From assembly GCA_964530855.1 (NCBI GenBank), contig CAZHBV010000001.1, positions 1 through 42,034 on the forward strand: a stretch of DNA of 42,034 nt, given 5' to 3'. A program made the translations under genes and the position numbers. The notes under the pieces are model-generated. The model did no database searches. It was not told the origin of the DNA and saw only the letters and a program-made list of their open reading frames with translations. This document shows positions 4,381 through 42,034 of the stretch, in pieces. The DNA is from an uncultured Candidatus Saccharibacteria bacterium (GTDB taxonomy: Bacteria > Patescibacteriota > Minisyncoccia > Minisyncoccales > PEYH01). Numbering within the stretch: position 1 is the first letter of the stretch; every line of letters starts with the position of its first letter.

Positions 4381-4743
4381 TTAACAGGTTAAATGGAAGA
4401 GTCCGATCACTTTCTTTTCTCTTCCTTCTTCCTCTTTAGATGCTTCTAATTGAATATTAAATGTCTTTATAGCCTCTTGGGTTGAGTCAATAACCAGTTC
4501 TATTCCTTGGTCTTTAATTAATTTCTTTGCTCTTGGAGTAACTTTAGCCATTCCATACGCACCGGTTCCTATAACAATCATTTCTGGCTTTTTTGAAACA
4601 GCCCTTGCCACATCTTTAAAATCAATTATGTGACTCTCTTCTCTTTGCCATTGCAAAACCTCGCCTGTCCACCTTACCTCAACATCAAAATTATATCTTT
4701 TTTTATCTATAATAATTTGACCAAATTTATATTCCTCAATCAT
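4381..4743 (-). CDS. Mth938-like (DUF498/NDUFAF3-like) domain protein
   Basis: 120 aa. EMIVIGTGAYGMAKVTPRAKKLIKDQGIELVIDSTQEAIKTFN matches the Mth938-domain pattern. Confidence 0.65.
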   Translation of the reverse strand: MIEEYKFGQIIIDKKRYNFDVEVRWTGEVLQWQREESHIIDFKDVARAVSKKPEMIVIGTGAYGMAKVTPRAKKLIKDQGIELVIDSTQEAIKTFNIQLEASKEEEGREKKVIGLFHLTC

Positions 4744-5548
4744 TCTTGAGTTTAATTATTGTAATTTCTGGTTTGGCATTAAATCTAAAAGGAAGAAATG
4801 TCCAACCAATTCCTCTATTTACATAAAGCCATTTATAATCTTCTCCAAAAAACCCACTTTTATATTTTCTGTCATATTTTAAAGGTAAAATTAAATTAGA
4901 TACGAGTGGAAGATTTATTTGTCCCCCATGAGTGTGGCCACATAGAACTAATACATTATTAAAATTAACCTTTCTAAAAATTTCAGGCGAATGTGCCAAA
5001 AGAATTTTGGGTATTTTCATATCTACTCCTTCAACTGCTTTATCTAATTGATCGAACCCTAAATGAGGATCATCAACACCTATTAAATATACTCCATCAA
5101 CTAAAACAGAGCGGTTATTTAGAATTTGAATTTCTTTCTTTTTTAAAATTTCTATCAATTTTTTAAGATTTTTATTTCTATGTTCGTGATTACCAAAGAC
5201 AATATAAATTTTTTTCTTAGGAATTCGAGAAAGTATCTCTAAAAATTGATCAAGCTCTTTCCACTTTTTGGTTGTCCAATCTATTAAGTCACCTGTGATA
5301 AAAATGTAATCAGGGTTTATTTCTTTTAACTTTTTAAGGGTTTTCCTTTCTCTTTCTGAAAAAGCCCTAAAATGAATGTCTGAAATTTGAACAAAGGTTT
5401 GCTCTTCCCCTTCAAAAGGAAGGTTTTTAAACTTTACTTCCAGGGTAGTTATTTCGATTGAATTTATTTCAATCATCCCCATATAGAGAATTCCTCCTAT
5501 AATAACTGCTGGGAATATAAGCATAATAAACATTTTAAACTTTCTCAT
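4736..5548 (-). CDS. Membrane-anchored metallophosphoesterase (YkuE/YaeI-like)
   Basis: N-terminal TM helix followed by ISDIHF, ITGDLID, GNHE and GHTHGGQ, the calcineurin-like phosphoesterase motifs. Confidence 0.85.
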   Translation of the reverse strand: MRKFKMFIMLIFPAVIIGGILYMGMIEINSIEITTLEVKFKNLPFEGEEQTFVQISDIHFRAFSERERKTLKKLKEINPDYIFITGDLIDWTTKKWKELDQFLEILSRIPKKKIYIVFGNHEHRNKNLKKLIEILKKKEIQILNNRSVLVDGVYLIGVDDPHLGFDQLDKAVEGVDMKIPKILLAHSPEIFRKVNFNNVLVLCGHTHGGQINLPLVSNLILPLKYDRKYKSGFFGEDYKWLYVNRGIGWTFLPFRFNAKPEITIIKLKND

Positions 5549-5549
5549 T

Positions 5550-6659
5550 TTAGGTCAAAATTAAGAAAATTTCTAAAATAACTCCGGCTAATAAAAATAG
5601 AGGTAGAAAATATAAAAATGGGTTTATTCTTTGTTGTTTAAGATGTAATGCTACTGCTTTTCTATAAAGAAATATATGAATAAAGCCTTCAATCCCGATG
5701 GCAATTGCCCCGCAAAGACTTAAAATCAAAGTAAAATTTTTAAAGCCAAAGAAATAAAATAAAAGAGGAATGCCTGTGGCTAACAAAAAAGATGTTTCTT
5801 TCTTAAATTTTAAATCATACAAAAAAACTTTTTTAATTGTCAGGCCTAAAGTGAGGTAAGAGGTAAAACAGGTAATCACGCCGAAAAGATAAAAGACCCA
5901 CAAAACCTTTTTGCCAAGGACCGAAACAAGACCTGAAAGAGCATCTTGGGTTGTGTTTTTACCACATGTGCCGACAATTATTATTATAAAAAGAATATAG
6001 ATCATTGCTGAGAACAGAATTCCAGAAATAACAATTCTCTTTAGATAATCCTCTTTCTTTTTTAACATTTCTGCTATTTCCGGTACAACTGCCGATCCCC
6101 ATAAAGAAAACAAGATAACTCCATAGGGATAGAATGAAAATTTAGAGAAAGATAGATTATTTGGGTTAATAAAACCGGCGGTTTTTATCAATAAAAATAT
6201 CAAAAGACCAAAGAAAAAAGTATTGATTAATGTCTCAGACCAAGAAATGCTTTTAATTCCCTTAAAAATTAAAAAACTCCCCAAAGCAAAAAAAGTTAAT
6301 ACATAATAAAGCTCTTTTCCTCCCAAAAGAGGACAAAAAAGTTTATATAAAAATCCTCCACCAACAATTAAATATACAAGTTGGGCCCCGAAAAGACCAA
6401 GGAATGTAGAAAATAAAGATAAAATCCCCCACTTTTTTCCCAAGTACTGAAATACATACCCCGGAAAACGATGTTTCTCTTTTGTTAAGCAGCAAACTTT
6501 TCCAAACAAAAGATGGATTACAATTGAAATGGCACCCAAGAGAGCAAAATAAAGAAAAACAAAAAAGAGACCAATATCTTTGACGGCCCAGGGTAAGGCG
6601 AAAATGCCCACGCCGATGATCGTGCCTACAAAAACAAAAAATGCTTCTGTGATTCTCAT
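5550..6659 (-). CDS. Amino acid permease-like polytopic membrane transporter
   Basis: 369 aa with about 11 hydrophobic segments. The N-terminus, FVGTIIGVGIFALPWAV, is typical of the amino-acid/aromatic amino-acid permease superfamily. Confidence 0.55.
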   Translation of the reverse strand: MRITEAFFVFVGTIIGVGIFALPWAVKDIGLFFVFLYFALLGAISIVIHLLFGKVCCLTKEKHRFPGYVFQYLGKKWGILSLFSTFLGLFGAQLVYLIVGGGFLYKLFCPLLGGKELYYVLTFFALGSFLIFKGIKSISWSETLINTFFFGLLIFLLIKTAGFINPNNLSFSKFSFYPYGVILFSLWGSAVVPEIAEMLKKKEDYLKRIVISGILFSAMIYILFIIIIVGTCGKNTTQDALSGLVSVLGKKVLWVFYLFGVITCFTSYLTLGLTIKKVFLYDLKFKKETSFLLATGIPLLFYFFGFKNFTLILSLCGAIAIGIEGFIHIFLYRKAVALHLKQQRINPFLYFLPLFLLAGVILEIFLILT

Positions 6660-7093
6660 TCTTTTCTTAAAATTCTTTTTTCAATTAAAAGGACCCCTGC
6701 TAGAATTAAAAGACCCAAAGAAGTAGCAAAGACAGCCAAAGAATACATCTTTAGCCCTATTGCTACCCCAATCGCTGCTACTAACCAAAGCCCAGCAGCG
6801 GTGGTCAAACCTTCTACATGATCCTTTCTAAAAATAATTACTCCACTTCCAATAAAACCAATCCCAATGGCAACTGCTTGAATAACTCTAAGAGGATCCA
6901 TATTCATCCTGCACTCTTTAAAAATGTTAGGGGCCAAAAAGGCTAATATAGTAAAAAGACAAGAAGCAATACAGACAAGCATGTAGGTTCTCAGACCTGC
7001 TTCTTTTTTTCCAAACTCTCTCTCAAGTCCCAAGAGCCCGCCCAAAACCGCTGCTAAGATTATTTGTAAAATTATCTCTAGAGCTTCTTTCAT
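6656..7093 (-). CDS. mgtC: MgtC/SapB family membrane protein
   Basis: LGGLLGLEREFGKKEAGLRTYMLVCIASCLF is the MgtC signature. There is a 4-nt overlap with the downstream permease gene. Confidence 0.85.
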   Translation of the reverse strand: MKEALEIILQIILAAVLGGLLGLEREFGKKEAGLRTYMLVCIASCLFTILAFLAPNIFKECRMNMDPLRVIQAVAIGIGFIGSGVIIFRKDHVEGLTTAAGLWLVAAIGVAIGLKMYSLAVFATSLGLLILAGVLLIEKRILRKE

Positions 7094-7094
7094 T

Positions 7095-7487
7095 TTATAA
7101 TTTAAAAACTTTGTATCCTTCTCTTACTTTTTCTTTAACTTTTAATCCTATTTCTTCCCCTTTCTTGGCTTTTTTTATCTTTTGGTGATTTATTTCCATT
7201 GAGTTTACCTTCTGTTTAAAATCCACCTCACCTCCAACTATTCTTATTTGGTCTCCTATTTTAATGGGAGCACTTAATTTTATTGCAGCCACTTTAATTT
7301 TATCAAAATAATGAGTTACCCTTCCTATCAATCTTTCCTTTTTCGAAACTCTCTTTTCTGTTACCTTTCTCTTCTTTTGTTTTGATCTTATCTTCCTTGT
7401 TTTTCCGCCTCTCTTTACCCTCTTTTTCTTCTTTGTCTTTTTAGTTACTTTAGATTTCTTCTTAGATTTGCTTTTCTTTTTAGCCAT
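7095..7487 (-). CDS. Small protein with a Lys/Arg-rich N-terminal tail plus an EF-Tu-domain-2-like beta-barrel ('translation elongation factor-like protein')
   Basis: The first ~50 aa are almost entirely K/R/S/T. The C-terminal GRVTHYFDKIKVAAIKLSAPIKIGDQIRIVG...FKQKVNSMEINHQKIKKAKKGEEIGLKV resembles stand-alone EF-Tu D2-like barrels. Confidence 0.5.
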   Translation of the reverse strand: MAKKKSKSKKKSKVTKKTKKKKRVKRGGKTRKIRSKQKKRKVTEKRVSKKERLIGRVTHYFDKIKVAAIKLSAPIKIGDQIRIVGGEVDFKQKVNSMEINHQKIKKAKKGEEIGLKVKEKVREGYKVFKL

Positions 7488-7541
7488 ATTTTTAGTTTAT
7501 TATGTTAATTGACCTTTAAATTAATTTTATCATAAAATTTA

Positions 7542-7614
7542 TGCCCCTGGGAGGAATCGAACCTCCATCTGAGGCTCCGGAGGCCTCTGTTCTATCCAAT
7601 TGAACTACGGGGGC
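7542..7614 (-). tRNA. tRNA-Arg (anticodon CCG)
   Basis: Hand-folded 73-nt cloverleaf: GCCCCCG TA GTTC AATTGGATA GAAC A GAGGC CTCCGGA GCCTC AGAT GGAGG TTCGATT CCTCC CAGGGGC A. D, anticodon and T stems are perfect, there is one C6-A67 mismatch, and CCA is not encoded. Confidence 0.85.
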
Positions 7615-8333
7615 AAATTTTGGCGGACGGGACTACAGGGGCGGGCCATAATAAATAAATTACTCTCTTTTTTGGACCTTTTTAAGATTTTTGCTTCTAA
7701 AACTCTAAACCCTGCTTTTTCTAAGGTATTTTTTAATGAGTTTAAAGTAAAAACATGAAGATATCTTTGTATTATAATATTGCCTTTTGAATCTTTCCAT
7801 GGCAGAAATATATCAAAAAAACCTAATTTTGATTTACCAATGAGTTTAAATATTGTATATTTTAAAAGAAGCCATTTAACTCTCTTTTTTGGTAAAAGAT
7901 TCCATACAGTAAGAATCAAGGTACCGTCTTTTTTAAGCACTCTTTTTATCTCTTTTAAAAATTGCATTCTGTACTTAAAAGAAGGAATGTGATGAAAAAC
8001 AGAAAGGCAAAAAACTTTATCAAAAAAATGATCTTGAAATGGTAAAGATAAGGGGGAGGTGAGAAAGAATTTGCCCTGGGGATAGTTTTTTTTCGCAATC
8101 TCTATCATTTTTGAGGATACATCCGCCCCAAAATATTCAGCATCGTTTTTGATCTCAAAAAGTCGCCCATTTCCACAGCCGAGATCTAAAATTTTCTCAC
8201 CCTTTTTTATAAACTTTTTCAAATATAGGACATCCTTCGGAATATAACTTCTTGTTCTTGAAAAATGATTAGTAATCTTATTATAATCCTCCTTTGTTTT
8301 TTCTAATAAAAATTGAGCGTATTCCTCTTTCAT
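7605..8333 (-). CDS. Class I SAM-dependent methyltransferase, Trm9/ALKBH8-MT-like (candidate tRNA U34 carboxymethyl methyltransferase)
   Basis: YNKITNHFSRTRSYIPKDV...ILDLGCGNGR (Trm9 has the HFSxTR...D-GCGNG pattern), SVFHHIPS, TLILTVW, and DIFLPW...RYLHVFTLNSL...AGF (Trm9-like DVFVPW...RYYH.F). The last 10 nt overlap the 5' end of the tRNA. Confidence 0.6.
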   Translation of the reverse strand: MKEEYAQFLLEKTKEDYNKITNHFSRTRSYIPKDVLYLKKFIKKGEKILDLGCGNGRLFEIKNDAEYFGADVSSKMIEIAKKNYPQGKFFLTSPLSLPFQDHFFDKVFCLSVFHHIPSFKYRMQFLKEIKRVLKKDGTLILTVWNLLPKKRVKWLLLKYTIFKLIGKSKLGFFDIFLPWKDSKGNIIIQRYLHVFTLNSLKNTLEKAGFRVLEAKILKRSKKESNLFIMARPCSPVRQNLPP

Positions 8334-9969
8334 GCAACCAGCTGAAATTTTAATTTTAAAACTTAAAAAAGCAGCAAAGAAAGACAGAAAAACTTTAGAA
8401 AAACTGAAAAGAGAAATTGCAGCGGATTTTTCAATTGATTTCCTATCAAATTCTTTGTTATTAAAAGCTTACCATAAGTTATTAAAAGAAAAAAGAATAG
8501 AAAGAGATAGAAATTTAGAGGAGCTTTTAAAAATCAAAAAAATCAGATCTCTTTCTGGTATCGTAATTGTTTCTGTTTTAACAAAACCCTACCCTTGTCC
8601 AGGTAAATGCTTGTATTGCCCTTATCAGAAAGGCATTCCAAAGAGTTATGTAAAAGGTGAACCTGCAGTTGATAGAGCAATGTCTTTAAAATATAATCCA
8701 TATTTACAGGTTCAAAAAAGACTAAAAACTTTAGAAGAAATCGGACATTCTATAGATAAAATTGATTTAAGAATTATAGGTGGAACATGGTCTTATTATC
8801 CAAAAAAATATCAGACTTGGTTTATAAAAGAATGTTTTAGAGCAGCAAATGATTTTAAAAATTCCGAACTCCAAGAACCAAATTCCAAACAAATTCAAAA
8901 TTTCAAATTCAAAATTCAAAAAAGTGATTTAGAAAAAGAGCAAAAGAAAAACGAGAAGGCAAAGTGTAGGATTATTGGAATTACTATCGAGACAAGGCCT
9001 GATTTTATTGACGAAAAAGAAATAAAAAGATTACGACGGCTAGGAGTTACAAGAGTCGAACTAGGAGTTCAAAGCATTTACGATGATGTCTTAAAGCTAA
9101 ACCGTAGGGGTCATAAAGTAGAGGAAACAATTAAAGCAACAAAACTTTTAAAGGATGCTGGGTTTAAGATTTGCTATCAGATGATGCCAAATCTTTATGG
9201 TTCAAATCTAAAACGAGATTTAGAGATGTTTAAACAATTATTTAACGATCCACGATTTTGCCCAGACTATTTAAAAATTTATCCTTGTGCTTTATTAAAA
9301 GAGGCTCCGTTATATAAACTTTATAAAGAAGGTAAATACAAGCCATATTCCTTTAAAGAGATTCTGTGGCTTTTAAAAGAAATTAAAAAAGTGGTGCCTT
9401 ATTGGGTAAGAATCCAAAGAATTGTTAGAGATATTCCAGCTCAAGCAATAATTGAGGGACCTACCAAAATCTCTAACTTAAGGCAAATTATTCACCAAGA
9501 AATGCAAAAAGAAGGATGGCGGTGTAAGTGTATAAGATGTAGAGAGGTAAGAGAAAATTATGATCCAAAGGAAAAGATTTATTTATTCAGAGAGGATTAT
9601 TGGGCTCAAGAAGGCTATGAAATATTTTTAAGTTTTGAAAATAAAAAAAGGGCGAAACTATTTTCCCTTTTGAGGCTTAGAATTCCCTCTCAATATTTTA
9701 CAAGAGAAAAACACTTTCTTTCAGTGCTTGAGGAAGCAGCAATTATAAGAGAAGTTCATACTTATGGAAAACTTGTTTCTCTTTACCAGAAAGAAATCGC
9801 TCCTCAACATAGAGGTCTTGGCAAAAAACTAATAAAAGAAGCAGAAAAAATTGCAAAAGAAGAATTTGGGCTAAAAAAAATAGCCGTGATTGCAGGAGTT
9901 GGAGTGAGAGATTATTTTAGAAAACTTGGATATAAATTAAAAAACACCTACATGATTAAAATTTTTTAA
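8332..9969 (+). CDS. elp3: Elp3-type radical SAM / GNAT acetyltransferase (tRNA U34 cm5 modification enzyme homologue)
   Basis: 545 aa. Radical-SAM Cys cluster region PYPCPGKCLYCPYQKGIPKSYVKGEPA, TIM-barrel core IIGITIETRPD...RVELGVQSIYDDVL, and C-terminal GNAT (REVHTYGKLV...QHRGLGKKLIKEAEKIA). Confidence 0.85.
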   Translation: MQPAEILILKLKKAAKKDRKTLEKLKREIAADFSIDFLSNSLLLKAYHKLLKEKRIERDRNLEELLKIKKIRSLSGIVIVSVLTKPYPCPGKCLYCPYQKGIPKSYVKGEPAVDRAMSLKYNPYLQVQKRLKTLEEIGHSIDKIDLRIIGGTWSYYPKKYQTWFIKECFRAANDFKNSELQEPNSKQIQNFKFKIQKSDLEKEQKKNEKAKCRIIGITIETRPDFIDEKEIKRLRRLGVTRVELGVQSIYDDVLKLNRRGHKVEETIKATKLLKDAGFKICYQMMPNLYGSNLKRDLEMFKQLFNDPRFCPDYLKIYPCALLKEAPLYKLYKEGKYKPYSFKEILWLLKEIKKVVPYWVRIQRIVRDIPAQAIIEGPTKISNLRQIIHQEMQKEGWRCKCIRCREVRENYDPKEKIYLFREDYWAQEGYEIFLSFENKKRAKLFSLLRLRIPSQYFTREKHFLSVLEEAAIIREVHTYGKLVSLYQKEIAPQHRGLGKKLIKEAEKIAKEEFGLKKIAVIAGVGVRDYFRKLGYKLKNTYMIKIF

Positions 9970-11581: not shown

Positions 11582-12451
11582 TCATATTAAAAATTTAACC
11601 ACTAAATATCCAAAAATTGTAAAAAATGAAATTGTAGGAAGAGCCGGCAGAGGTCTTCTTTTCTTTTGTGAAAGAAACAAGAAAAGTGTAAGTAAAATTC
11701 CAAAAACTGCAAAAACTGCTACAATTAAAGCATTTTTAATTCCAGCGGCCGGAATAAGAGAAGAGGCAAATATTAGAGGAAAAGCAATATCTCCTCCACC
11801 AAGAATTACAAATTCTTTACCAGGTCTGGCCTCCTTCAAAGAAATGCAAAAATTAGCAAGTCTGTTGGGAATTATTAATCCCATCATTGTGCCACTCTCA
11901 AGCATAGATTTTGCCATTTTCTGCATATGTTTTGTTTTATAAACAGCAATAAAATCATATATAGACAACAGGCCTAAAATTATTAAAAGAGTTTCTGGTT
12001 TAAAACTTAGCCCAAGCATCGCAGAAATACCTGCTAAACCCAATCCAATAAAAAGATTATGGTTTAAAAGGGTTGGATGTTTTGCTCGGCGATATATAAG
12101 CAAAGCGCAAGAAAGAAGCGGGAAAAGGTTTGTAAATAAAAAATTGTTTGGTAAGTAGGAAAAAAGTAAAAAGAAGGTAATCAAGGCCCCGTATGCTCCT
12201 GAGAAGAAATATAGTACTTGAAAAATTCTACCTTTTACTTTTTTAAGTTTTGGAAGGTAAGCAAGGAACAAAATTAGACAGGTACCAAAAAAGAAAAGAA
12301 ATACAAATTCGCCTATTGTTAAGGTGGGTACTTCAATTTCCTCCTGTATCATGATCTTCCAAGCTGTTTGAGCCATAAATAAACCTAGAGAAAAAATAGA
12401 AATCACAATTATCCCTTCTATTAAAAATGTTTGAAATGTGAGTTTTTCCAT
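11582..12451 (-). CDS. Presenilin / signal-peptide-peptidase family (A22) intramembrane aspartyl protease homologue
   Basis: 289 aa, polytopic. LLSIYDFIAVY (YD), VILGGGDIAFPLIF (GxGD) and RRPLPALPTISF (PAL) occur in the canonical order, each inside or next to a hydrophobic segment. Confidence 0.7.
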   Translation of the reverse strand: MEKLTFQTFLIEGIIVISIFSLGLFMAQTAWKIMIQEEIEVPTLTIGEFVFLFFFGTCLILFLAYLPKLKKVKGRIFQVLYFFSGAYGALITFFLLFSYLPNNFLFTNLFPLLSCALLIYRRAKHPTLLNHNLFIGLGLAGISAMLGLSFKPETLLIILGLLSIYDFIAVYKTKHMQKMAKSMLESGTMMGLIIPNRLANFCISLKEARPGKEFVILGGGDIAFPLIFASSLIPAAGIKNALIVAVFAVFGILLTLFLFLSQKKRRPLPALPTISFFTIFGYLVVKFLI

Positions 12452-13817: not shown

Positions 13818-14972
13818 TCATAATAAAACTGTATCGAGTAACCTTCTTCTTGCTGCTTCTTTCTCCTTTAGCGAAATTTTGGCTTTTTGAATAGCTTTTT
13901 CTACAATCTCGATTGTTTTATCATAAGTTGGCCTAGATACAGGATAAGGAGTGCCATCTTTGCCTCCATGAGCAAAAGAAAATCTCGCTGGATCTTCATA
14001 AGAAGGTTTTTTGCCATATATTAACTCCGCCACCAAAGTTAAAGCCCTCAAAGTTTTTGGACCTACTCCTTTAATTCTAACCAATTCCTCGAAAGTTTTT
14101 GGTTTTAGAAAATGGGCTGCTTCAATTGTTTTTCTTAGCCTTCTTAAATCAAATTTCTCTTGTAATACTGGGTGCCAATGAAACTCTACGTCCTTTAGGC
14201 TCATTAAAGTAAGCTGTCCGATTTGTTGTTTTTTAATTAAAGAGGTGGAATGTTTCTGAAGAGAAGAAAAATTTCTTAAAAAAGTTTTTGGTTCTTCCCT
14301 CACCATTTCTGTACAAATTTCTCTTGTTTCTTTGCTTTTTTTAGCAATCAAATTTAAGGGTTTCACCTTTCTTTGAGTTGCAATACCTGAATGTGGTTCT
14401 TCTGTGAAATCTTTTACCTTATCTGATAACCAATGATATCTTCTTGCGGTTGCATTTTTATCATTTAATCCTTGTTGAATTACTACCCATTTTCCGCTAT
14501 GAGTAAAAACTAAATTATGATGATATAAAGTATAGCCATCTTGTAGCGCAGAATTGTCAATTTTTGCAGAAATTTTTGAGGCATAAATTAAACTTTCAAT
14601 CCTCTTCTGATCCAATCCTATCACTTCTCCCCATCGTTTAATTTGCTCTGGTGTTTTTAAAGAAGTTTTTCCTTTCCCTCCACAAACAAAAATTCCCAAA
14701 TTTTTTTCAATCCCTCGTATTCCTCCTTTCAAAGCTGCTAAAGTTAAAGTAGTCAATCCTGACGAATTCCAATCAAAGGCAATAACACAACCCAAACTTT
14801 GAAACCAAACAGGATCTGAAATCCTTCTTAAAAATTCTTCTTCTCCAAACTCCTCAACAATGGCAATTAAAATTGCCCTAGACAATTTTTTCATTCTTTC
14901 AAAAAGCCAAGGAGGGCAATGTCCTGTATCTAATGGAAGTGTAGCAATTCCTGTTCTCATTAATTTAATCAT
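13818..14972 (-). CDS. DUF763 family protein (with a C-terminal helix-hairpin-helix)
   Basis: RTGIATLPLDTGHCPPWLFERMKKLSRAI matches my memory of the DUF763 N-terminus. LVRIKGVGPKTLRALTLVAELIYG is an HhH motif. Confidence 0.55.
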   Translation of the reverse strand: MIKLMRTGIATLPLDTGHCPPWLFERMKKLSRAILIAIVEEFGEEEFLRRISDPVWFQSLGCVIAFDWNSSGLTTLTLAALKGGIRGIEKNLGIFVCGGKGKTSLKTPEQIKRWGEVIGLDQKRIESLIYASKISAKIDNSALQDGYTLYHHNLVFTHSGKWVVIQQGLNDKNATARRYHWLSDKVKDFTEEPHSGIATQRKVKPLNLIAKKSKETREICTEMVREEPKTFLRNFSSLQKHSTSLIKKQQIGQLTLMSLKDVEFHWHPVLQEKFDLRRLRKTIEAAHFLKPKTFEELVRIKGVGPKTLRALTLVAELIYGKKPSYEDPARFSFAHGGKDGTPYPVSRPTYDKTIEIVEKAIQKAKISLKEKEAARRRLLDTVLL

Positions 14973-16221: not shown

Positions 16222-19200
16222 TTACTCTCCTTTAATTACTGCCAAAGGCACAAGTCTTGCAACTTTTTTAGAAAGTCCTGCTTTGTGCACCACATCTACT
16301 ACTTCATCTACATTTTTATAAGCCTGGGGTGCTTCTTCTGCCACACCTTTAAAAGAATAGCATTTTACAATAATTCCTTTTTGCTCTAATGTTTCTACCA
16401 CATTTCTCCCAGAAATTGTTTTAATGGCTTTAGCGCGAGACATAGTTCTACCTGCACCATGACAAACTGTATGCCATGCCTCTTTTGATTTCTCTTCTCC
16501 CACAAGAACATAAGATGCTGTTCCCATTGACCCCGGAATAATTACCGGCTGCCCAGTTTCTTTATATTTTTCGGGAAGTTCTGAGTGTCCCGGAGGAAAG
16601 GCTCTTGTTGCTCCTTTTCGATGGACAATTAGTTTCATTTTCTTTCCATCAACCTCATGCTCTTCAATTTTGGCAATATTGTGCGCGACATCATACAAAA
16701 GTGTTAATTTTGCACTCTCGCCTAAAACTTTCTTCCAGGCTTTTCTTACATAATAAGAAATCATATGCCGATTTGCCCAGGCAAAATTACAGGCAGCCGA
16801 CATTGCCCTAAAAAACCTTTGCCCCTCCGGAGAATTAAAAGGAACACAGCACAATTCTTTATCTGGTAATCTTATTCCATATTTTGGATAAATAGGCATC
16901 AAAATTCTTAAGTAATCTGTGCAGTTTTGATGGCCTAAGCCTCGAGAACCTGTATGAATTAATACTACAACCTGCCCTTTGAATAAACCAAATTTCTTTG
17001 CGACTTCCTCATCATAAATTTCATCTACCCTATCAATTTCGCAGAAATGATTTCCGGATCCGAGAGTTCCAACTTGATTTCTCCCTCTGTTTTTGGCTTT
17101 CTCTGAAACGCAACTTGCATCGGCTGTCTCCATTCTTCCTTTGTACTCACAATTCTCAACATCTTCTTTTTCTCCATAACCTTTTTCCACCAAATAAGGC
17201 ACTCCTCCTTCTAAAATTCTGTTAATTTGCTCAATTGATAACTTAACTTTCCTTCCTCTTCCCAACCCAGATGGAACTTCTTTTTGAATCTCTTCTGCTA
17301 ATTTATCTAAATAAGGCCTGATTTCTTTTTCTGTATATTCTGATTTTAGCAATCTAACCCCGCAGTTCTGATCAAATCCGATTCCGCCAGGAGAAATTGC
17401 TCCATCTGGAAATTTGGTAGCAGCAACTCCTCCAATACAATTTGAAACCACAAAGTTATTAGCAATAAAATTATGAGAAGGATGGTTTATAGTAAAATCA
17501 TAAACCCAATCTTTATGAGAAATCCTTTTAATTTCTGCAATTTCATCCCATACTATCCCACTTTTACCTAATTTAGAAGTTACTGTTTTAAAATACTCTT
17601 GAAAAGTGGGAAAATTAGCAGGAACCTGAGGAGAAATATTCTTCAATCTTTTATTAATTTTCCAACACACATCAATTATAAATCTTTTTGTTAAAGGATT
17701 GCCGGTAGCAAGTTGCAAGGCTATTCTCTGGTAACTTAAACCTTTTTTTAATAAATTAGGAACAATTTTGTCAATTACTTCTCTTTTCTCTTCTAATATT
17801 TTTTGTTTGTATTTGAGATATTGAAGGGCAACATTAGCGACAAAACTGCGTTTTTTATTATATTCAAAACCAATTTTGGACCAGAGATTAATTAAACTTT
17901 CTATTTTTGAAGAAAAAACTAAATCTAATCCCCAAGAAATCTCCCCCTTAACATTAATATGCTTTTTTCGCTGCTTTATATAAATTGTTTCCACGCCAAA
18001 TTCTTTAAGAAGTTTAGATATATCTTCTAAAAACAACCTACCATTAGAAATTAACTTTTCAGCCTTATTCATTTGTAATACTGGGCAATTAAACATCGTT
18101 TTTCTTCCTTTTCTTGGATGAGGAGTTCTTAACTCTGCTCCAAAAAAACTAGCAAGAAACAATCGCTTTTGCCACAAAGGACATTTAAAAATCCATTTTG
18201 GAACTCGATATCTCTGAAACACTTTTTTACCTTTTGGCACCCCTAAGGTTTGAAGAAGCACCAAGAAACTGCTTGCGTTCACACAAAAAGAGTGCTTGAT
18301 ATAAATTTTCTTATTTCCTTTATAGATTCTTTCTTCCTTTTGAATATGAATTGGCGAAGGAGTATAGCCAATTTTTTTAATGTCTTTTCTAATCTCTTCT
18401 AAATCTTCTTTCTTTCCAAAAAATCCCACAATTCCATCACCTCTCTTTCCAATAAAATTCATTGTTCCATCACCAAAAACAAATCCCATTATTTTTAGAA
18501 GATAAGGAAGTTTGGGATGGTTGTAAGTTAAAGGCAGAAGAGAGCGTTTTTTTAATTTTTGTAAAATTATTCTAAATCGAGGAGTGTCTTCTTTAACACC
18601 TATTTTATTAAGAGTTTTTTTAATATCCTTTTCGTCAATTATAATCTCATTTGAAGGCTCCTCATAAGGAACTCCTTCAAAAGGGAAAATTGCAATTTTA
18701 TCTCCGGGATTTAGCTTTTCTAAAACCATCATTCCTTTAGGAGTATAAAATGGATGGTCTCCAGTAGCCACAATTTCTCTACCAGTTTTAGTAATTACTT
18801 TAAATACTTTACTTTTTGGTTTTATTTTCAAGAATTTTTGAATTGAGGCCTCAACTAACTTTTTTAATTTAAAATCTACAATTTTTAAAGTAAAATCTTT
18901 CTCCTTTTTCTGAAAATCCTTAATTGGAAGATAAAAACCAAAATTACTCAAAATTTTAGTGTCTCCTTTTAAACAAAAACCATAGCCCTCATGGGCATCT
19001 GGCATCGCTAAAGCATATTTTACAATTCCTGGAAGAGTAGTGATGTTTACCAATTGATGAAGTGATTTATCTCTAAAACAGTCTTCCAACAATTTCTTGG
19101 ATGCATAAATTCTTGCCGGGACTCTCATATCCGACCTGAAACTTTTTGGAATTTCCCAAAGATAATCGTTAATTTTTATAAAATCTTTTTTAGAAATCAT
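16222..19200 (-). CDS. rtcB: RNA 3'-phosphate/2',3'-cyclic phosphate ligase RtcB, interrupted by an intein
   Basis: The 75-aa N-extein (...YALAMPDAHEGYGF) plus the 405-aa C-extein (CIGGVAATKF...GFDQNCGVRL...GSGNHF...IHTGSRGLGH...HNIA...HRKGAT...GSMG...CHGAGR) add up to 480 aa, a normal RtcB length with its metal and GMP-His motifs. Confidence 0.95.
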   Translation of the reverse strand: MISKKDFIKINDYLWEIPKSFRSDMRVPARIYASKKLLEDCFRDKSLHQLVNITTLPGIVKYALAMPDAHEGYGFCLKGDTKILSNFGFYLPIKDFQKKEKDFTLKIVDFKLKKLVEASIQKFLKIKPKSKVFKVITKTGREIVATGDHPFYTPKGMMVLEKLNPGDKIAIFPFEGVPYEEPSNEIIIDEKDIKKTLNKIGVKEDTPRFRIILQKLKKRSLLPLTYNHPKLPYLLKIMGFVFGDGTMNFIGKRGDGIVGFFGKKEDLEEIRKDIKKIGYTPSPIHIQKEERIYKGNKKIYIKHSFCVNASSFLVLLQTLGVPKGKKVFQRYRVPKWIFKCPLWQKRLFLASFFGAELRTPHPRKGRKTMFNCPVLQMNKAEKLISNGRLFLEDISKLLKEFGVETIYIKQRKKHINVKGEISWGLDLVFSSKIESLINLWSKIGFEYNKKRSFVANVALQYLKYKQKILEEKREVIDKIVPNLLKKGLSYQRIALQLATGNPLTKRFIIDVCWKINKRLKNISPQVPANFPTFQEYFKTVTSKLGKSGIVWDEIAEIKRISHKDWVYDFTINHPSHNFIANNFVVSNCIGGVAATKFPDGAISPGGIGFDQNCGVRLLKSEYTEKEIRPYLDKLAEEIQKEVPSGLGRGRKVKLSIEQINRILEGGVPYLVEKGYGEKEDVENCEYKGRMETADASCVSEKAKNRGRNQVGTLGSGNHFCEIDRVDEIYDEEVAKKFGLFKGQVVVLIHTGSRGLGHQNCTDYLRILMPIYPKYGIRLPDKELCCVPFNSPEGQRFFRAMSAACNFAWANRHMISYYVRKAWKKVLGESAKLTLLYDVAHNIAKIEEHEVDGKKMKLIVHRKGATRAFPPGHSELPEKYKETGQPVIIPGSMGTASYVLVGEEKSKEAWHTVCHGAGRTMSRAKAIKTISGRNVVETLEQKGIIVKCYSFKGVAEEAPQAYKNVDEVVDVVHKAGLSKKVARLVPLAVIKGE
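17440..18975 (-). mobile_element. 512-aa intein with a LAGLIDADG homing-endonuclease domain inside rtcB
   Basis: It begins CLKGDTKIL (block A Cys1), has block B IVATGDHPFYT, two dodecapeptide motifs (LLKIMGFVFGDGTM and RLFLASFFGAELRT) and block F/G VYDFTINHPSHNFIANNFVVSN. The +1 residue is the Cys of CIGGV. Codon boundaries were checked on the DNA (TGT at 18975-18973, AAT at 17442-17440). Confidence 0.9.
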
Positions 19201-20383: not shown

Positions 20384-20788
20384 TTAAACATCAAACAGAA
20401 TTATTGCTACATAATCTCCTTTTTTCTCTTTAATCTCTAAGTCATGATAGGTAACCCCTTTAATAATTAATTCTTTCTTTTTTATTTTTTTTCCAAAAAG
20501 TTCTCCCTCAAGGGTATTATCAGAGAATTTTTTAAATTTTATATTAAAATAAGCTTCGTTCTCTGTTTCGCTTAAATATAAAATCTCACTTAAAAAATCT
20601 ACAAGAAGTTGTAGAATATCTGGAGATTGAATTTTAATCTTTCTCTTGACTACTTTTCCCTCCGACTTTATTCCGGCTGCTTCAAACATCGCTCTCATCG
20701 CATTTAAAAAAAGTTCTCTTTTTGAGGAGCCAAAAACTTTTATTTTTAAATCTGCTTTATGAGGAAGAATTTCGAAAAATTTTTTCAT
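20384..20788 (-). CDS. Archease (RtcB activator)
   Basis: 134 aa. FEILPHKADLKIKVFGSSKRELFLNAMRAMFEA at the N-terminus and IKGVTYHDLEIKEKKGDYVAIILFDV at the C-terminus match the archease pattern (HTADi...G / KavTYH.l.v.....a.vv.DV). Confidence 0.8.
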   Translation of the reverse strand: MKKFFEILPHKADLKIKVFGSSKRELFLNAMRAMFEAAGIKSEGKVVKRKIKIQSPDILQLLVDFLSEILYLSETENEAYFNIKFKKFSDNTLEGELFGKKIKKKELIIKGVTYHDLEIKEKKGDYVAIILFDV

Positions 20789-28797: not shown

Positions 28798-29745
28798 TTA
28801 AATAAGTTTTTTCTGAAGTACTTTTTTAGAAGTTGCAGAAGATTGAAAAATGTCAGGTAGTCTTTTTATGAGACTGTAAAATCCATAAGCTTCTAATACC
28901 TTTTTTATTTTTCCTTTTTGTAAATTCAAAATAGCACAGTCTTTAAGCCGAAATTGTATAGGAACATTTTTTTTAATTTGGGCTAATTTTTTTGACAAAA
29001 ATGCCTGCTCTTTATATTTCAACAGCGCTTCTTTAATTTTAGGTTTGATTTTGTTGCCCTCTTCTTTAAAAAGAGCCTTATAGAGACCTTCTAAACTCTG
29101 GAAATTTTTAATTAATTGGCAAGCGGTTTTCCTCCCAATACCATATACCCCCGGAATATTATCCGAAGGATCTCCAAAGAGAGCCTTAAAATCAGAAATT
29201 TGTCCTGGCAACAATTCTAGTTTTTCCTTTACTAAATTCTCATCATATAAACCAGTGTTTTTAATGCCCCTTTTTAGAAGATAAACTTTTGTTAAAGAAT
29301 CAACTAGTTGCAGCATATCTAAGTCTCCGGTAACAATAATGGTTTCAATTTCCGAATCTTTTTCTTGTTCTTTTACAATTTTTGAAATTGTCCCAATGAT
29401 ATCATCTGCTTCATACCCCTTTTTCTCAAAAATTTTAACCCCAATCTCTTGAAGAATTTTTTTAATCTCTGGAATTTGCTGATAAAACTCATCTGGAGCT
29501 TTAGGCCGCTTGGCTTTGTATTCCTTAAAAATTTTCTCTCTAAATGTAGGAGCAGGGAAATCAAAAGCCACCGCTAAGAAATCTGGTCTAAATTCTTTTA
29601 TTACTTTAAAAAGAACCAGTAAAAACCCATAGACTGCATTTATTGGTTTTCCTTCTTTAGTTGTCAAAGGTGGTAAAGCATAAAAAGCTCTATGTAAAAT
29701 AGCATTCGCATCTAATACAAGAAGGGTTTGTTTTGAATTGGTCAT
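28798..29745 (-). CDS. Stand-alone 5'-3' exonuclease / flap endonuclease (Pol I N-terminal domain type)
   Basis: LLVLDANAILHRAFYALP, YKAKRPKAPDEF, GYEADDIIGT, VTGDLDMLQLV and DNIPGVYGIGRKTA. There is no polymerase domain. Confidence 0.85.
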   Translation of the reverse strand: MTNSKQTLLVLDANAILHRAFYALPPLTTKEGKPINAVYGFLLVLFKVIKEFRPDFLAVAFDFPAPTFREKIFKEYKAKRPKAPDEFYQQIPEIKKILQEIGVKIFEKKGYEADDIIGTISKIVKEQEKDSEIETIIVTGDLDMLQLVDSLTKVYLLKRGIKNTGLYDENLVKEKLELLPGQISDFKALFGDPSDNIPGVYGIGRKTACQLIKNFQSLEGLYKALFKEEGNKIKPKIKEALLKYKEQAFLSKKLAQIKKNVPIQFRLKDCAILNLQKGKIKKVLEAYGFYSLIKRLPDIFQSSATSKKVLQKKLI

Positions 29746-30209
29746 AAAGTTTTACCTGTTTTTACAATTATTTTACGAGTCTTTGGGTCTACCATTTTAA
29801 ATTTTACCTCTATTGTGCTTTTGGGCAAAAACTCTTTTATTTTGTCTGCCCATTCAATAGCAATTATATTTTTTGGAGATAGAATACTTTCCCACCCGAT
29901 ACCTAAAATATCCTGTGGAGACCCAAGCCGCCAGCAATCTATATGATAAAAATTCTTAAAATGAGAGTGAGAAAGTTTGAATCTTTTCATCAAAACAAAT
30001 GTCGGACTTAAAATTCTTTTTTTAACTCCAAAGCCTAAAGCAAGACCCTTCAAAAAAGTTGTTTTCCCGCTTCCTAATTTGCCAATCAAAGCAAAAATAA
30101 TCGGTCCTTCTTCCTTTTTTTGAACCTCTCTTGCTATTTTTTGAGCCAAAAGTCTTGTTGCGTGTGGTGAGTGAGTAATGTATTCTTTTTTCATTGACTT
30201 TTTTAGCAA
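29742..30209 (-). CDS. tsaE: tRNA t6A37 biosynthesis ATPase TsaE
   Basis: LIGKLGSGKTTFLKGLA, SPTFVLM and HIDCWRL motifs in 155 aa. Confidence 0.85.
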   Translation of the reverse strand: MLKKSMKKEYITHSPHATRLLAQKIAREVQKKEEGPIIFALIGKLGSGKTTFLKGLALGFGVKKRILSPTFVLMKRFKLSHSHFKNFYHIDCWRLGSPQDILGIGWESILSPKNIIAIEWADKIKEFLPKSTIEVKFKMVDPKTRKIIVKTGKTL

Positions 30210-30233: not shown

Positions 30234-31325
30234 ATGGAGGAATTTCCCGAAATAAAAAAACTAATTGAGAAAAATCGATCTATTCTTATCTGCGCGAATC
30301 CAGCAAGAGACTCGTTGGATGTTATTTTAGCCACCTCCTCCCTTTTTTATACTCTAAAAAAAATCGGTAAAGCTGTAAAACTTTATCCGGAGAATTTTTT
30401 AGCAGATAAACATTTTTTCTCTTTTCCATTAAAAGAACTTAAAAACTTTATTCTAGTTTTCAAAAACCCAGACTTTTTCCCTGAAATTTATTACAAAAAA
30501 AACAATGATACAATGGAACTTTGTTTGTTAACAAAAGGCAAGTTACCTAAATCTGAGGAGATAAGTATCTATATTCCAAAGGAAACTTCTCAAGATATTG
30601 ACCTTGTAATCACTGTTGGGGTATCCTCGCTGGAAAGTTTAGGAGACTTTTATGAGAAAAATTTCAAAATTTTTTTTAATGCACCAATTATTAATCTTGA
30701 CAACAATTTAAACAATAGAGAATTTGGCAAAATTAATCTTATTGAAGAGTATCCCCTTGGCTTTTTAGTCTTCAAACTAATTCGTCAATTTCCCAAAGGC
30801 ATTTTTGATAGATATCTTGCAAAATCTCTATTTTTAAGCATCTTCTTGTCTTTGAAAGAAAAAGAAGTACAGGAAAATTTGTTAAAAGCTCTTTGTTTCT
30901 TAAAGGAGTATGTTGCTGATTTTAAAGACATTAAAGAAACGATTCTTCAGGGTTTTTCATCTAAAGAAAAAAATCTCTTTGAAGTTTTTGTAAGATCCAT
31001 GGAATATCCATTTAAAGTTCCATTTCCAATAGTTAGTTTGAAGAAAAACCAATTAGAGAAGTTTCAACTTCAAGAGAAAGATCTTCCTTTAGGTATTCGG
31101 CTTTTTAGAGAAAAGCTTGTGGTTTTGCCATCAATACTTTTTATATGGGAAAGTCATGCTTCTTCAAATTCCACAAAAGGAATTCTCTACTCTAGCAAAC
31201 AAGAACATCTCTCTAGATTATTTAGAACTTTCTCCGGCATCAAAGACAAAGAAAGAATATTTTTTTCAACAAAAGAAGACATTATGTCAACAAAAAACTT
31301 AATTTGTAAAATGTTTCATGAGTAA
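30234..31325 (+). CDS. DHH/NrnA-like protein with degenerate catalytic motifs (probable pseudoenzyme)
   Basis: The architecture and local patterns resemble NrnA-type DHH phosphoesterases, but motif I reads CANPARDSLD and the DHH motif position reads IINLDNNLNNREFG (DNN). No GGGH motif is recognisable. Confidence 0.4.
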   Translation: MEEFPEIKKLIEKNRSILICANPARDSLDVILATSSLFYTLKKIGKAVKLYPENFLADKHFFSFPLKELKNFILVFKNPDFFPEIYYKKNNDTMELCLLTKGKLPKSEEISIYIPKETSQDIDLVITVGVSSLESLGDFYEKNFKIFFNAPIINLDNNLNNREFGKINLIEEYPLGFLVFKLIRQFPKGIFDRYLAKSLFLSIFLSLKEKEVQENLLKALCFLKEYVADFKDIKETILQGFSSKEKNLFEVFVRSMEYPFKVPFPIVSLKKNQLEKFQLQEKDLPLGIRLFREKLVVLPSILFIWESHASSNSTKGILYSSKQEHLSRLFRTFSGIKDKERIFFSTKEDIMSTKNLICKMFHE

Positions 31326-40249: not shown

Positions 40250-40588
40250 GTGTTGCCCAAGAAATATCGTTTAAAAAAGAAAAAAGAATTTGAACGAGTA
40301 TTCAAAAAAGGAAAGGCTAAAAAGAAAGATTTTTTGTTTATTAAATTCGTTAAGAATGATCAAAATGCTACTAGATTTGGATTTGTCGTCTCAAAGAAAA
40401 TATCCAAAAAAGCAGTTGTACGAAATAAAGTAAAAAGAAGACTTAGAGAAGCGGCAAGAGAAATGCTCTCTGAGATAAAACCCGGATATGATGTTGTAAT
40501 CGTGGCTCAGAAAGGAATAGAAAAACAAGATTTTTTTCAAATAAAGAACCAATTAAGACAGTTATTAAGAAAAATAAATTTACGATGA
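40250..40588 (+). CDS. rnpA: Ribonuclease P protein component
   Basis: GTG start. LPKKYRLKKKKEFERVFKKG and AVVRNKVKRRLRE (RNR motif), at the canonical position after rpmH. Confidence 0.9.
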   Translation: MLPKKYRLKKKKEFERVFKKGKAKKKDFLFIKFVKNDQNATRFGFVVSKKISKKAVVRNKVKRRLREAAREMLSEIKPGYDVVIVAQKGIEKQDFFQIKNQLRQLLRKINLR

Positions 40589-41313
40589 TTTTTTCGGATT
40601 TATTTAGAATTCTTTTGTGGCAACCTTTGTTTAATCTTTTAATCTTTTTTTATTTATATCTACCTGGAAACGATTTTGGTATAGCAGTTATTGCTCTGAC
40701 TATTTTAGTCCGATTAATTTTGTGGCCATGGCAGAAAAAAGCCATTCATTCACAATTGGTTCTTCAAAAAATTCAGCCCAAAATTAAAGAACTTCAGAAA
40801 AAATATAAAAACGATAACGAAAAACTAGGAAGAGAATTTTTAAAACTTACACGCTCTCAAAAAGTAAATCCATTTTTTGGCACGTTTATCACTTTTTTAC
40901 AACTACCCATTTTAATTGCTCTTTATAGGGTCTTTTGGCAAGGATTTAGTGAAGAAAACTTAAAATATCTTTATCCGTTTATGAAAAGGCCTGAAATATT
41001 AGACCCCTCATTTCTGGGAATGATAGATTTAAGTCAACCAAATCTTATTATGGTTATTCTGTTGGCAATTGTTTCGTTTTTGCAACAGCGCATGATGACG
41101 AAAAAAAGAAAAACAAAGAAAAGTTTTGAAGATGTTTTTCAGGCTCAGATGCTTTATATTATGCCTGTTTTTATAGCCTTGATATTTTTAAGACTTCCTT
41201 CAGCATTAGCATTGTATTTAATCGTCTCAACTATTTTTGCCATATTACAACAAAAAATAGTTGAAAAGGAGATAGCCGAACATGAAAAAAGAGAAGATGA
41301 AAAAACAAATTAA
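40585..41313 (+). CDS. yidC: Membrane protein insertase YidC (short form)
   Basis: 242 aa with GIAVIALTILVRLILWPW, the KIQPKIKELQKKYK coiled-coil hairpin and the PILIALY region. A 4-nt overlap couples it to rnpA. Confidence 0.9.
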   Translation: MIFSDLFRILLWQPLFNLLIFFYLYLPGNDFGIAVIALTILVRLILWPWQKKAIHSQLVLQKIQPKIKELQKKYKNDNEKLGREFLKLTRSQKVNPFFGTFITFLQLPILIALYRVFWQGFSEENLKYLYPFMKRPEILDPSFLGMIDLSQPNLIMVILLAIVSFLQQRMMTKKRKTKKSFEDVFQAQMLYIMPVFIALIFLRLPSALALYLIVSTIFAILQQKIVEKEIAEHEKREDEKTN

Positions 41314-41743
41314 AAAAATTACTGAAAAATTTTTTGAAAAATTAGGTTTCCCAGGGGAGATAACAGTAGATCTAAGGGAAGAGAGTACTTTTTATATTTC
41401 CGTCAAAACCGATGAGCCCCAAATTTTGATTGGAAAAAGAGGAGAGACTTTATTTTTGATCCAAAAACTTCTTGTAAAAATCTTAAAGAAAGAAATCTCC
41501 CAAGATGCTTTAATTGATTTAGATATTAACGATTATAAAAAGAAGAAAATTAACTTTCTTAGAGAATTGGCCCAAATTACAGCAGACGAGGTGGCCTTAC
41601 ATAAAAAAGAAAAAGAACTGGAACCAATGCCAGCCTATGAGAGAAGGATTATCCATTTAACATTGGCAGAAAGAAAAGATGTCACAACCGAAAGCAAAGG
41701 CAATGAGCCAAAAAGAAGGGTAGTGATTAAACCACTCTTATAA
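41282..41743 (+). CDS. jag: Jag/SpoIIIJ-associated RNA-binding protein (KH plus R3H)
   Basis: The KH-like region has ILIGKRGETLFLIQ. The R3H region has MPAYERRIIHLTLAE. The true start may be the second Met, 5 codons downstream. Confidence 0.8.
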   Translation: MKKEKMKKQIKKITEKFFEKLGFPGEITVDLREESTFYISVKTDEPQILIGKRGETLFLIQKLLVKILKKEISQDALIDLDINDYKKKKINFLRELAQITADEVALHKKEKELEPMPAYERRIIHLTLAERKDVTTESKGNEPKRRVVIKPLL

Positions 41744-42034
41744 TATTTTTGCTTTAATTAGAAGAATCGAACCGATTACATTATCAAAACCAAGTTGGGC
41801 TAAGTCTGGTGCTGTAACCCCTATAGCAAGAGCAATCCCTCTTGGAATAATTGCCCCAGCACCATTGATAATCCTGGGACCATTTGTGATTGCGTCTTTC
41901 CGGTCATATAAAATTGCCAGATACGAAGAACCTTTTTCAAGGCCAACATAAGAAATTCCTTCCGGTAGAAAGACGCTTACATTTCTTCCTCCCAAAAGAC
42001 CAGAAAAACTACCGTTACCATCCTCTATATCATC
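41738..42034 (-). CDS. Hypothetical protein, C-terminal fragment (5' end of the gene is off the window)
   Basis: The frame stays open from the window edge (DDIEDGNGSFSGLLGGRNVSVFLPEG...). I recognise no motif. Confidence 0.4.
   Translation of the reverse strand, partial: DDIEDGNGSFSGLLGGRNVSVFLPEGISYVGLEKGSSYLAILYDRKDAITNGPRIINGAGAIIPRGIALAIGVTAPDLAQLGFDNVIGSILLIKAKIL

Follow-up and report, generated by a model that had tools for sequence, protein, structure and literature searches.

A conserved Elp3 and Trm9-like gene pair predicted to form a compact wobble-uridine modification pathway in Patescibacteria

The contig CAZHBV010000001.1 from an uncultured Candidatus Saccharibacteria bacterium (42,034 nucleotides, nt; this whole stretch is referred to here as the window) contains two divergent genes whose start codons overlap. 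One encodes an Elp3 protein of 545 amino acids (aa), a radical-SAM and GNAT-type enzyme predicted to carboxymethylate U34 of tRNA, whose basic N-terminal extension is of archaeal type (8332-9969, plus strand); the other encodes a class I S-adenosylmethionine (SAM) enzyme of 242 aa, related to Trm9 and predicted to methylate the carboxyl group of cm5U34 to mcm5U34 (7605-8333, minus strand), which is called the methyltransferase throughout this text. This Trm9-like family is tied to Elp3 across the Patescibacteria, or candidate phyla radiation (CPR). We consider it probable (about 0.7) that the pair represents a compact and conserved bacterial Elp3/Trm9 pathway for the modification of wobble uridines. 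In the proposed model Elp3 would work by itself, as it does in archaea, and carboxymethylate C5 of U34 at the expense of SAM and acetyl-CoA (giving 5-carboxymethyluridine, cm5U); the methyltransferase would then methylate the cm5U carboxyl with SAM, giving mcm5U34 (5-methoxycarbonylmethyluridine). Elp3 would most likely be transcribed from a sigma-70-type promoter located antisense inside methyltransferase codons 16-26, and the methyltransferase would head a long minus-strand operon, most likely co-transcribed with the tRNA-Arg(CCG) gene that lies directly 3' of it (7542-7614, minus strand).

Elp3 and its divergent Trm9-like neighbour

The product of the 8332-9969 gene is Elp3. It scored 594.5 bits against the NCBIfam model TIGR01211 (ELP3; cut-off 350), with residues 11-543 covering model positions 6-520 of 522, and it contains the Pfam domains Radical_SAM (4.6e-19), Radical_SAM_C (2.5e-22) and Acetyltransf_1 (residues 492-534), a cysteine cluster C89-x3-C93-x2-C96 and the acetyl-CoA motif QHRGLGKKL. 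The best match among PDB sequences was the Elp3 of Methanocaldococcus infernus (6ia8, E 1.4e-132). This alignment begins at residue 17, showing that the window protein has the basic N-terminal extension that is absent from the Dehalococcoides Elp3 and is reported to be important for tRNA recognition (PMC6367351). Formation of cm5U34 is the activity predicted for it.

The identity of the partner was less evident. The motifs HFSRTR, LDLGCGNG, DIFLPW and RYLHVF, on which a preliminary description of this locus had based its reading of a Trm9/ALKBH8-like rather than a generic methyltransferase, are all found in the translation, and LDLGCGNG with the invariant D71 constitutes a class I SAM signature. 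Mutagenesis has defined eight essential residues in ScTrm9, namely R29, D72, H116, W145, W168, R241, Y243 and N271, and Y18 and H115 are also implicated in activity (PMC4678810). Seven of these eight are kept in the methyltransferase, as R28 (R29), D71 (D72), H115 (H116), W144 (W145), W179 (W168), R190 (R241) and N225 (N271), together with Y17 (Y18) and H114 (H115). For R241, H116, N271 and W145 of Trm9 a role in holding the carboxylate of cm5U and its uracil ring has been proposed, and in a docking model H115 and N271 were proposed to read uracil O4 and N3/O2 (PMC4678810).

Conservation of these positions extends well beyond the window. Y17, R28, D71, H114, H115, W144, R190 and N225 are invariant when CPR homologues and fungal Trm9 proteins are aligned together, with W179 nearly so. 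The methyltransferase family comprises at least 301 clusters at 50% identity, and in 151 representatives of such clusters the signature positions are 89-99% conserved, including tyrosine at position 17 in 90% and arginine at position 28 in 97%; position 179 is tryptophan in 66% and aromatic in 95%. The signature (Y...FSxTR, W, RYxH and N) is missing from the closest generic methyltransferases, and it is kept in the Elp3-linked members from outside the CPR (loci L015 and L016).

Most profile and fold comparisons pointed in the same direction. Sequence identity between the methyltransferase and fungal Trm9 is 21-28%, and its best single-sequence match in PDB was Yarrowia Trm9 (5cm2_Z, E 1.6e-11), covering the C-terminal DxxxPW...RYxH region. 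When the family profile was aligned with a fungal Trm9 profile by hhalign, 206 columns reaching from the N-terminal helix as far as the C-terminus were matched with a probability of 99.9% (E 1.3e-32). A hidden Markov model (HMM) of fungal Trm9 gave a median of 87 bits on the Elp3-linked family (range 54-112; 37 for one Anaerolineaceae member) against a median of 20 and at most 46 bits on generic bacterial methyltransferases. The AlphaFold2 model of the protein had a mean predicted local distance difference test score (pLDDT) of 94.2, and its best Foldseek match in PDB was again Trm9 5cm2_Z (E 1.4e-16, target-normalised TM-score 0.83), about 80-fold better than the runner-up. Some homologues have been labelled TRM9 or alkB family protein 8 by the JGI pipelines. 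The Trm9/ALKBH8-like assignment was thus supported by signature residues, fungal Trm9 profile and HMM scores and the Foldseek top match, and the UbiE/UbiG-like relationship named as its alternative was not borne out, as the Trm9 signature is kept and the corresponding cut-offs were missed (51 vs 158 bits for MenG_MenH_UbiE, 35 vs 103 for UbiG and 46 vs 216 for PRK00216). A Trm9-like enzyme is supported by these comparisons, and transfer from cm5U to mcm5U is the reaction predicted for it.

The linkage of the two genes, which had been proposed from this single locus, turned out to be conserved in its relatives. A scan with one genome per species recovered 16 full-length relatives of the methyltransferase, in 11 of which Elp3 directly precedes the methyltransferase and is read from the other strand, one of the 11 being a metagenome-assembled genome (MAG) of Anaerolineaceae. 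A further 80 loci came from scanning metagenomes with patterns specific to the family. Linkage was counted over the 76 loci in which 600 nt or more of sequence precede the methyltransferase start. In 64 of the 76, Elp3 is divergent and its start overlaps that of the methyltransferase or is separated from it by less than 40 nt; it is divergent at 40-300 nt in 4, farther off in 2, and missing from the flank or on the same strand in the remaining 6. Loci with gaps of 8-116 nt in place of an overlap retain the linkage as well. Such conservation is strong contextual evidence that Elp3 and the methyltransferase work jointly. Wider synteny is much weaker, other neighbouring genes being found in only 2 to 27 of 60 related loci, and since these neighbours are poorly kept, Elp3, the methyltransferase and the tRNA gene appear as the conserved core of the locus.

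The Anaerolineaceae MAG (Chloroflexota; locus L016) carries its divergent Elp3/Trm9-like pair at 4388-6690, with about 60 nt between the starts and no adjoining tRNA gene. This pair is located outside the CPR and is relevant to the origin of the Dehalococcoides Elp3.

Start-codon overlap and candidate promoters

The start codons of the two genes share 2 nt within a CATG palindrome (8331-8334), the Elp3 ATG being 8332-8334 on the plus strand and the methyltransferase ATG the complement of 8331-8333, exactly as the preliminary description had it. Both are the sole workable starts: the next in-frame methionine of Elp3, M117, lies past the radical-SAM cysteines C89, C93 and C96, and the methyltransferase N-terminus MxxxYAxxLL is common to its homologues from residue 1. 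When related loci were collapsed into clusters at 90% identity (61 clusters, referred to here as lineages), the identical 2-nt CATG overlap was found in 28-29 of the 61, an abutting CATATG in 5 and gaps of 1-3 nt in 7, most of the others having spacers below 40 nt.

Neither start is preceded by a Shine-Dalgarno (SD) sequence, as had been pointed out for this locus. This absence is unremarkable, since only about 4-5 of 40 window genes carry one. Sequences upstream of many window genes are A/T-rich, and TATAAT-like boxes stand 12-19 nt ahead of the ATG in several of them; short leaders without SD would thus seem to be the norm here.

A consensus scan located a putative sigma-70-type promoter for Elp3 at 8258-8287 (plus strand), composed of TTGAAA (8258-8263), an 18-nt spacer and TATAAT (8282-8287). 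It matches the consensus at 11 of 12 positions and is antisense to methyltransferase codons 16-26, which specify the catalytic DYN and FSxTR motifs. TATAAT occurs antisense at the homologous position in 42 of 57 lineages, the upstream hexamer TTGAAA in 24 and a hexamer starting with TTG in 35. Codon choice within the motif is biased towards the letters that the promoter requires: S25 is encoded by TCA in 25 of 35 lineages (background 27%, p = 7e-8), D16 by GAT in 43 of 45 (background 77%, p = 7e-4) and F24 by TTT in 42 of 44 (background 81%, p = 0.007), while for Y17 the excess of TAT (49/57, background 80%) was not significant (p = 0.18). Where residue 25 is alanine or threonine the codon is still NCA, so that the antisense TTG is preserved. 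These tests took the lineages as independent at synonymous sites, a reasonable assumption at 45-60% protein identity, and made no formal phylogenetic correction. Read in this way, the synonymous bias favours keeping the Elp3 promoter and would reflect selection on it.

From this promoter the Elp3 transcript would start near 8294. Its leader would then measure about 38 nt and be complementary to roughly the first 12 methyltransferase codons. The proposal that the Elp3 mRNA is leaderless is then probably wrong. A possible alternative box, TAnnnT at -12 to -7 of Elp3, is present in 76% of the lineages with the CATG overlap and would make the mRNA leaderless, but it lacks a -35 element, and the TTGAAA-N18-TATAAT motif (-74 to -45) is for this reason the better candidate. 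On the methyltransferase side no fixed-position promoter motif was found across lineages. In the window, a motif scan gave one weak, low-confidence candidate -10 box, TAAAAT, inside Elp3 codons 8-9 (8353-8358, minus strand). TANNNT starting at -32 to -8 of the methyltransferase occurs in 82% of lineages vs 58% of control windows, with peaks at -19 and -17, a modest excess that would mean a very short leader, the predicted start lying about 5-13 nt upstream of 8333 (minus strand). The idea that each gene harbours the promoter of the other is supported for Elp3, whose putative promoter lies inside methyltransferase codons; on the methyltransferase side the candidate is weak. If both promoters are real, we infer that the transcription units would face each other over about 45 bp.

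Both the CATG overlap and the promoter-like motif could instead have arisen as side effects of a streamlined genome and of the AT-rich codons that specify the conserved protein motifs, with transcription starting at other sites. The compactness of the genome fits such an origin, and so do further overlapping divergent pairs in related loci (from crude gene calls) and the gene for TsaE (29742-30209, minus strand) with an unannotated 363-aa gene (30234-31325, plus strand), which are divergent with a spacer of only 24 nt. The codon bias at Y17 does not exceed background, and the region shows no excess of promoter-like matches over shuffled sequences (7 vs 4.8 +/- 1.8). However, 28-29 of 61 lineages share precisely this 2-nt overlap, and synonymous sites are expected to be saturated among them. 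The TCA preference at S25 and the retention of NCA when the residue changes to alanine or threonine also count against a by-product. With these observations, a by-product origin is rather unlikely.

Substrate and partners of the methyltransferase

Several observations weigh against a Trm9-type pathway. Pfam returned only generic matches for the methyltransferase (Methyltransf_11, 25, 31, 23 and 12), and in NCBIfam each match was far under the family cut-off, with no specific family. ScTrm9 Y243, whose change to alanine reduces activity about 10-fold (PMC4678810), corresponds to L192 in the window protein, and tyrosine, although the commonest residue there, is found in just 38% of the family. 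An insertion of about 12 residues follows the active-site W144, forming helix 150-164 in the model; it is specific to the family and absent from Trm9. Searches of PDB sequences with the HMMER family profile ranked PH0226 (1ve3, 2.9e-20) slightly ahead of Trm9 (3.2e-19), the PH0226 match spanning the Rossmann core only, and an HMM of the CPR family scored generic methyltransferases at up to 98 bits vs a median of 86 for fungal Trm9. Outside the enzyme itself, the Elp3 promoter motif occupies the codons of DYN and FSxTR, two conserved protein motifs, and owes part of its conservation to coding, and C34 of the adjoining tRNA is not explained by the pathway. Since raw scores do not separate the candidates, the Trm9 call rests on the signature residues, full-length coverage, the fold and the gene context.

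The same generic domain matches, the loss of Y243 and the helical insertion beside W144 would also fit an enzyme with the Trm9 fold acting on another substrate, such as a different nucleoside (whether Elp3-derived or unrelated), a different tRNA or rRNA position or a small molecule, with the linkage to Elp3 reflecting co-regulation or synteny locked by the overlaps instead of successive reactions. Overlapping genes are hard to separate, which makes synteny weaker evidence here than usual. Against such an enzyme stand the seven retained essential residues plus Y18 and H115, which include R241, H116, N271 and W145, and the persistence of the linkage with gaps of 8-116 nt and in the Anaerolineaceae genome. 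A different substrate is quite unlikely on this evidence, and an enzyme acting on cm5U is preferred.

In the Yarrowia complex, Trm112 covers a hydrophobic patch of Trm9 formed by V59, F78, V102, A110, P112 and F116, and with this patch uncovered Trm9 is insoluble without its partner. In the CPR family the equivalent of V59 (residue 47) is lysine or arginine in 71% of members and mostly polar in the rest, and the equivalent of F78 (residue 66) is aspartate or glutamate in 50% and polar in the rest; F104 (F116) and P98 are the patch residues retained in the methyltransferase. A regular-expression search for Trm112-like zinc-knuckle and GIP motifs over all six frames of the window returned nothing relevant. 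The charged patch residues, together with the lack of a Trm112-like open reading frame (ORF) in the window, fit a stand-alone enzyme, and the methyltransferase probably works without a Trm112 partner.

Located on the same strand as the methyltransferase, and overlapping the last 10-11 nt of its ORF, is the tRNA-Arg gene with anticodon CCG (7541-7615 by ARAGORN; 7542-7614 by Rfam, 65.8 bits). The methyltransferase has no stop codon of its own: within the overlap with the tRNA 5' end (7605-7614, minus strand), its TAG stop (7605-7607) is U8-A9-G10 of the tRNA. The ORF ends at tRNA nucleotides 8-10 in the window and in 10 other lineages, the tRNA-borne stop being TAG but TAA in one lineage, and the tRNA-encoded tail of the protein is disordered (residues 237-242, pLDDT below 50). 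In 41 of 57 lineages a tRNA-Arg(CCG) gene follows the methyltransferase on its strand at a distance of no more than 700 nt, and in 2 further lineages the ORF reads through the tRNA, giving a total of about 75%; essentially no other tRNA follows the methyltransferase in these lineages. Having C34, the tRNA is not an expected substrate of Elp3.

No terminator-like site was found on the minus strand between the methyltransferase and the tRNA. A possible internal sense promoter for the tRNA, TGGAAA-N17-TATAAT (7799-7771), was rejected as a conserved element, being present in close relatives only (6/49). With neither a conserved internal promoter nor a terminator-like site, co-transcription of the methyltransferase and the tRNA would be the simplest arrangement. 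In a joint transcript, RNase P trimming the tRNA 5' end would cut the stop codon off the methyltransferase message and leave a non-stop mRNA.

Small tRNA arrays follow the methyltransferase in three loci (L012, L108 and L150), two of them with Arg-CCG, Arg-TCT and His and one with Arg-TCG, Met and Lys. Elp3 was not in the upstream flank of L012 and L150, and the flank of L108 extends for only 527 nt.

This arrangement also invites a regulatory interpretation, in which face-to-face promoters and a tRNA-embedded stop make the locus a self-regulating unit, or in which tRNA-Arg(CCG) is an unrecognised substrate of Elp3/Trm9. The Elp3 and methyltransferase transcripts could be mutually antisense at their 5' ends, and the tRNA-made stop could tie methyltransferase synthesis to precursor processing via RNase P. 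We regard this interpretation as very unlikely. The more specific proposal that tRNA-Arg(CCG) is the target, at C34 or another position, or a sensor through its embedded stop, is highly improbable: it would account for the nearly exclusive presence of this tRNA after the methyltransferase in about 75% of lineages, for the ORF end at tRNA nucleotides 8-10 in 11 lineages and for the non-stop mRNA that RNase P would produce, but characterised Elp3 enzymes all act on U34 (PMC6367351, PMC13315578), Trm9 H115 and N271 are the proposed uracil readers (PMC4678810), about 25% of lineages have no adjoining tRNA, and the arrangement is more simply explained by the tight packing of streamlined genomes.

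Genomic context and relation to known systems

The host is one of the ultra-small Patescibacteria, its bacterial nature being indicated by window genes for DnaA, DnaN, a class A penicillin-binding protein (PBP1), a Mur ligase, RnpA, YidC and Jag; the nearest named homologues of the methyltransferase come from MAGs of Pacebacteria, Nealsonbacteria, Wildermuthbacteria and the 'Patescibacteria group'. GC content is 33% in the window. Base composition gave no sign of recent transfer, the module having 31-33% GC and the rest of the window 30-36%.

Just downstream of the tRNA is a gene for a small protein with a lysine-rich N-terminus and a weak match to EF-Tu domain 2 (7095-7487, minus strand). It has homologues in 27 of 60 related loci and may belong to the same operon as the methyltransferase and the tRNA. 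Elsewhere on the minus strand, the window contains an RtcB RNA ligase gene interrupted by an intein (16222-19200; 992 aa, RtcB 5e-163 plus Intein_splicing) and, near it, an Archease gene (20384-20788); such a tRNA ligase pair in a CPR bacterium is archaeal/eukaryotic in style. The minus strand also encodes a presenilin-type signal peptide peptidase (11582-12451) and a DUF763 protein (13818-14972), and both of these families are more typical of archaea.

Conversion of uridine to cm5U by Elp3 and on to mcm5U by Trm9 is established in eukaryotes and has been proposed or partly shown in archaea (PMC4678810, PMC6144793, PMC2584109, PMC5372719, PMC6367351). Compared with eukaryotic Elongator and Trm9-Trm112, both catalytic folds, the radical-SAM/GNAT architecture of Elp3 and the Trm9 catalytic residues are kept in the window pair. 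Elp1, Elp2 and Elp4-6 are not expected here, and the differences from Trm9-Trm112 are the charged residues at the Trm112 contact, the additional helix 150-164 and the physical coupling of the genes.

The archaeal systems are closer in organisation. Elp3 and Trm9 genes cluster in Sulfolobus (PMC2584109), and archaeal as well as bacterial Elp3 functions without the Elp1-6 partners (PMC6367351, PMC13315578). The window pair likewise has clustered genes and a stand-alone Elp3 with a basic N-terminal extension, which is closer to the M. infernus Elp3 than to that of Dehalococcoides. In contrast, the host here is bacterial, and the Trm9 of Haloferax works with Trm112 (PMC6144793). Neither the start-codon overlap nor the tRNA overlap is described for archaea in the Elp3/Trm9 literature consulted for this comparison (PMC2584109, PMC6144793).

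Among bacteria, the Elp3 of Dehalococcoides mccartyi (DmcElp3) is also a stand-alone protein and has been structurally characterised (PMC6367351). It differs from the window protein in its length (459 vs 545 aa) and in lacking a long N-terminal extension, and no Trm9 partner has been described for it. Whereas DmcElp3 was termed a 'rare example' of a bacterial Elp3 (PMC6367351), the Elp3 and Trm9-like pair described here is a widespread lineage trait. A 2017 review detected no bacterial genes with significant similarity to eukaryotic Trm112-dependent methyltransferases and confined archaeal Trm9 orthologues to the Sulfolobales and Halobacteriales (PMC5372719). A literature search returned no paper connecting Elp3 with CPR or Patescibacteria, and likewise nothing relevant on MnmE/MnmG in CPR.

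The bacterial MnmE/MnmG system (with MnmC) has an equal role, modification of C5 of the wobble uridine, carried out by unrelated enzymes and chemistry. No MnmE or MnmG was found among the window ORFs. An origin-type rnpA-yidC-jag cluster lies beside dnaA and dnaN (40250-42034), and the usual position of mnmE after jag is taken by a convergent gene that runs off the window end, a weak hint at the absence of MnmE/MnmG.

Overlapping divergent promoters that face each other and generate antisense 5' untranslated regions are known from the excludons of Listeria and from pR/pL of phage 186. The predicted Elp3 leader would be comparable, running antisense to the beginning of the methyltransferase mRNA, with about 45 bp of converging transcription. 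Unlike them, the paired genes here would serve one pathway rather than opposing functions, and the overlap is a prediction from sequence.

The pathway itself is already known, as are the TRM9/ALKBH8 labels given automatically to some homologues, and the Elp3 model of the Prokaryotic Genome Annotation Pipeline (PGAP) would name the Elp3. What apparently differs here is the large bacterial host radiation, the apparent independence from Trm112, the family's own helical insertion and the unusual gene architecture. This architecture combines overlapping starts, a putative promoter antisense to the codons of catalytic motifs and a stop codon inside a tRNA gene, and provides a small natural system in which to study how genes with fully overlapping divergent starts are expressed. 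With the module kept in dozens of related lineages, a pathway that has been called rare in bacteria, or absent from them, looks like a standard feature of this group. If the predicted chemistry is true, a large bacterial radiation would use the archaeal/eukaryotic route to C5-modified wobble uridines (xm5U34), the methyltransferase would offer a naturally Trm112-independent Trm9 for structural and mechanistic work, and the finding would bear on how the CPR acquired archaeal-type translation features.

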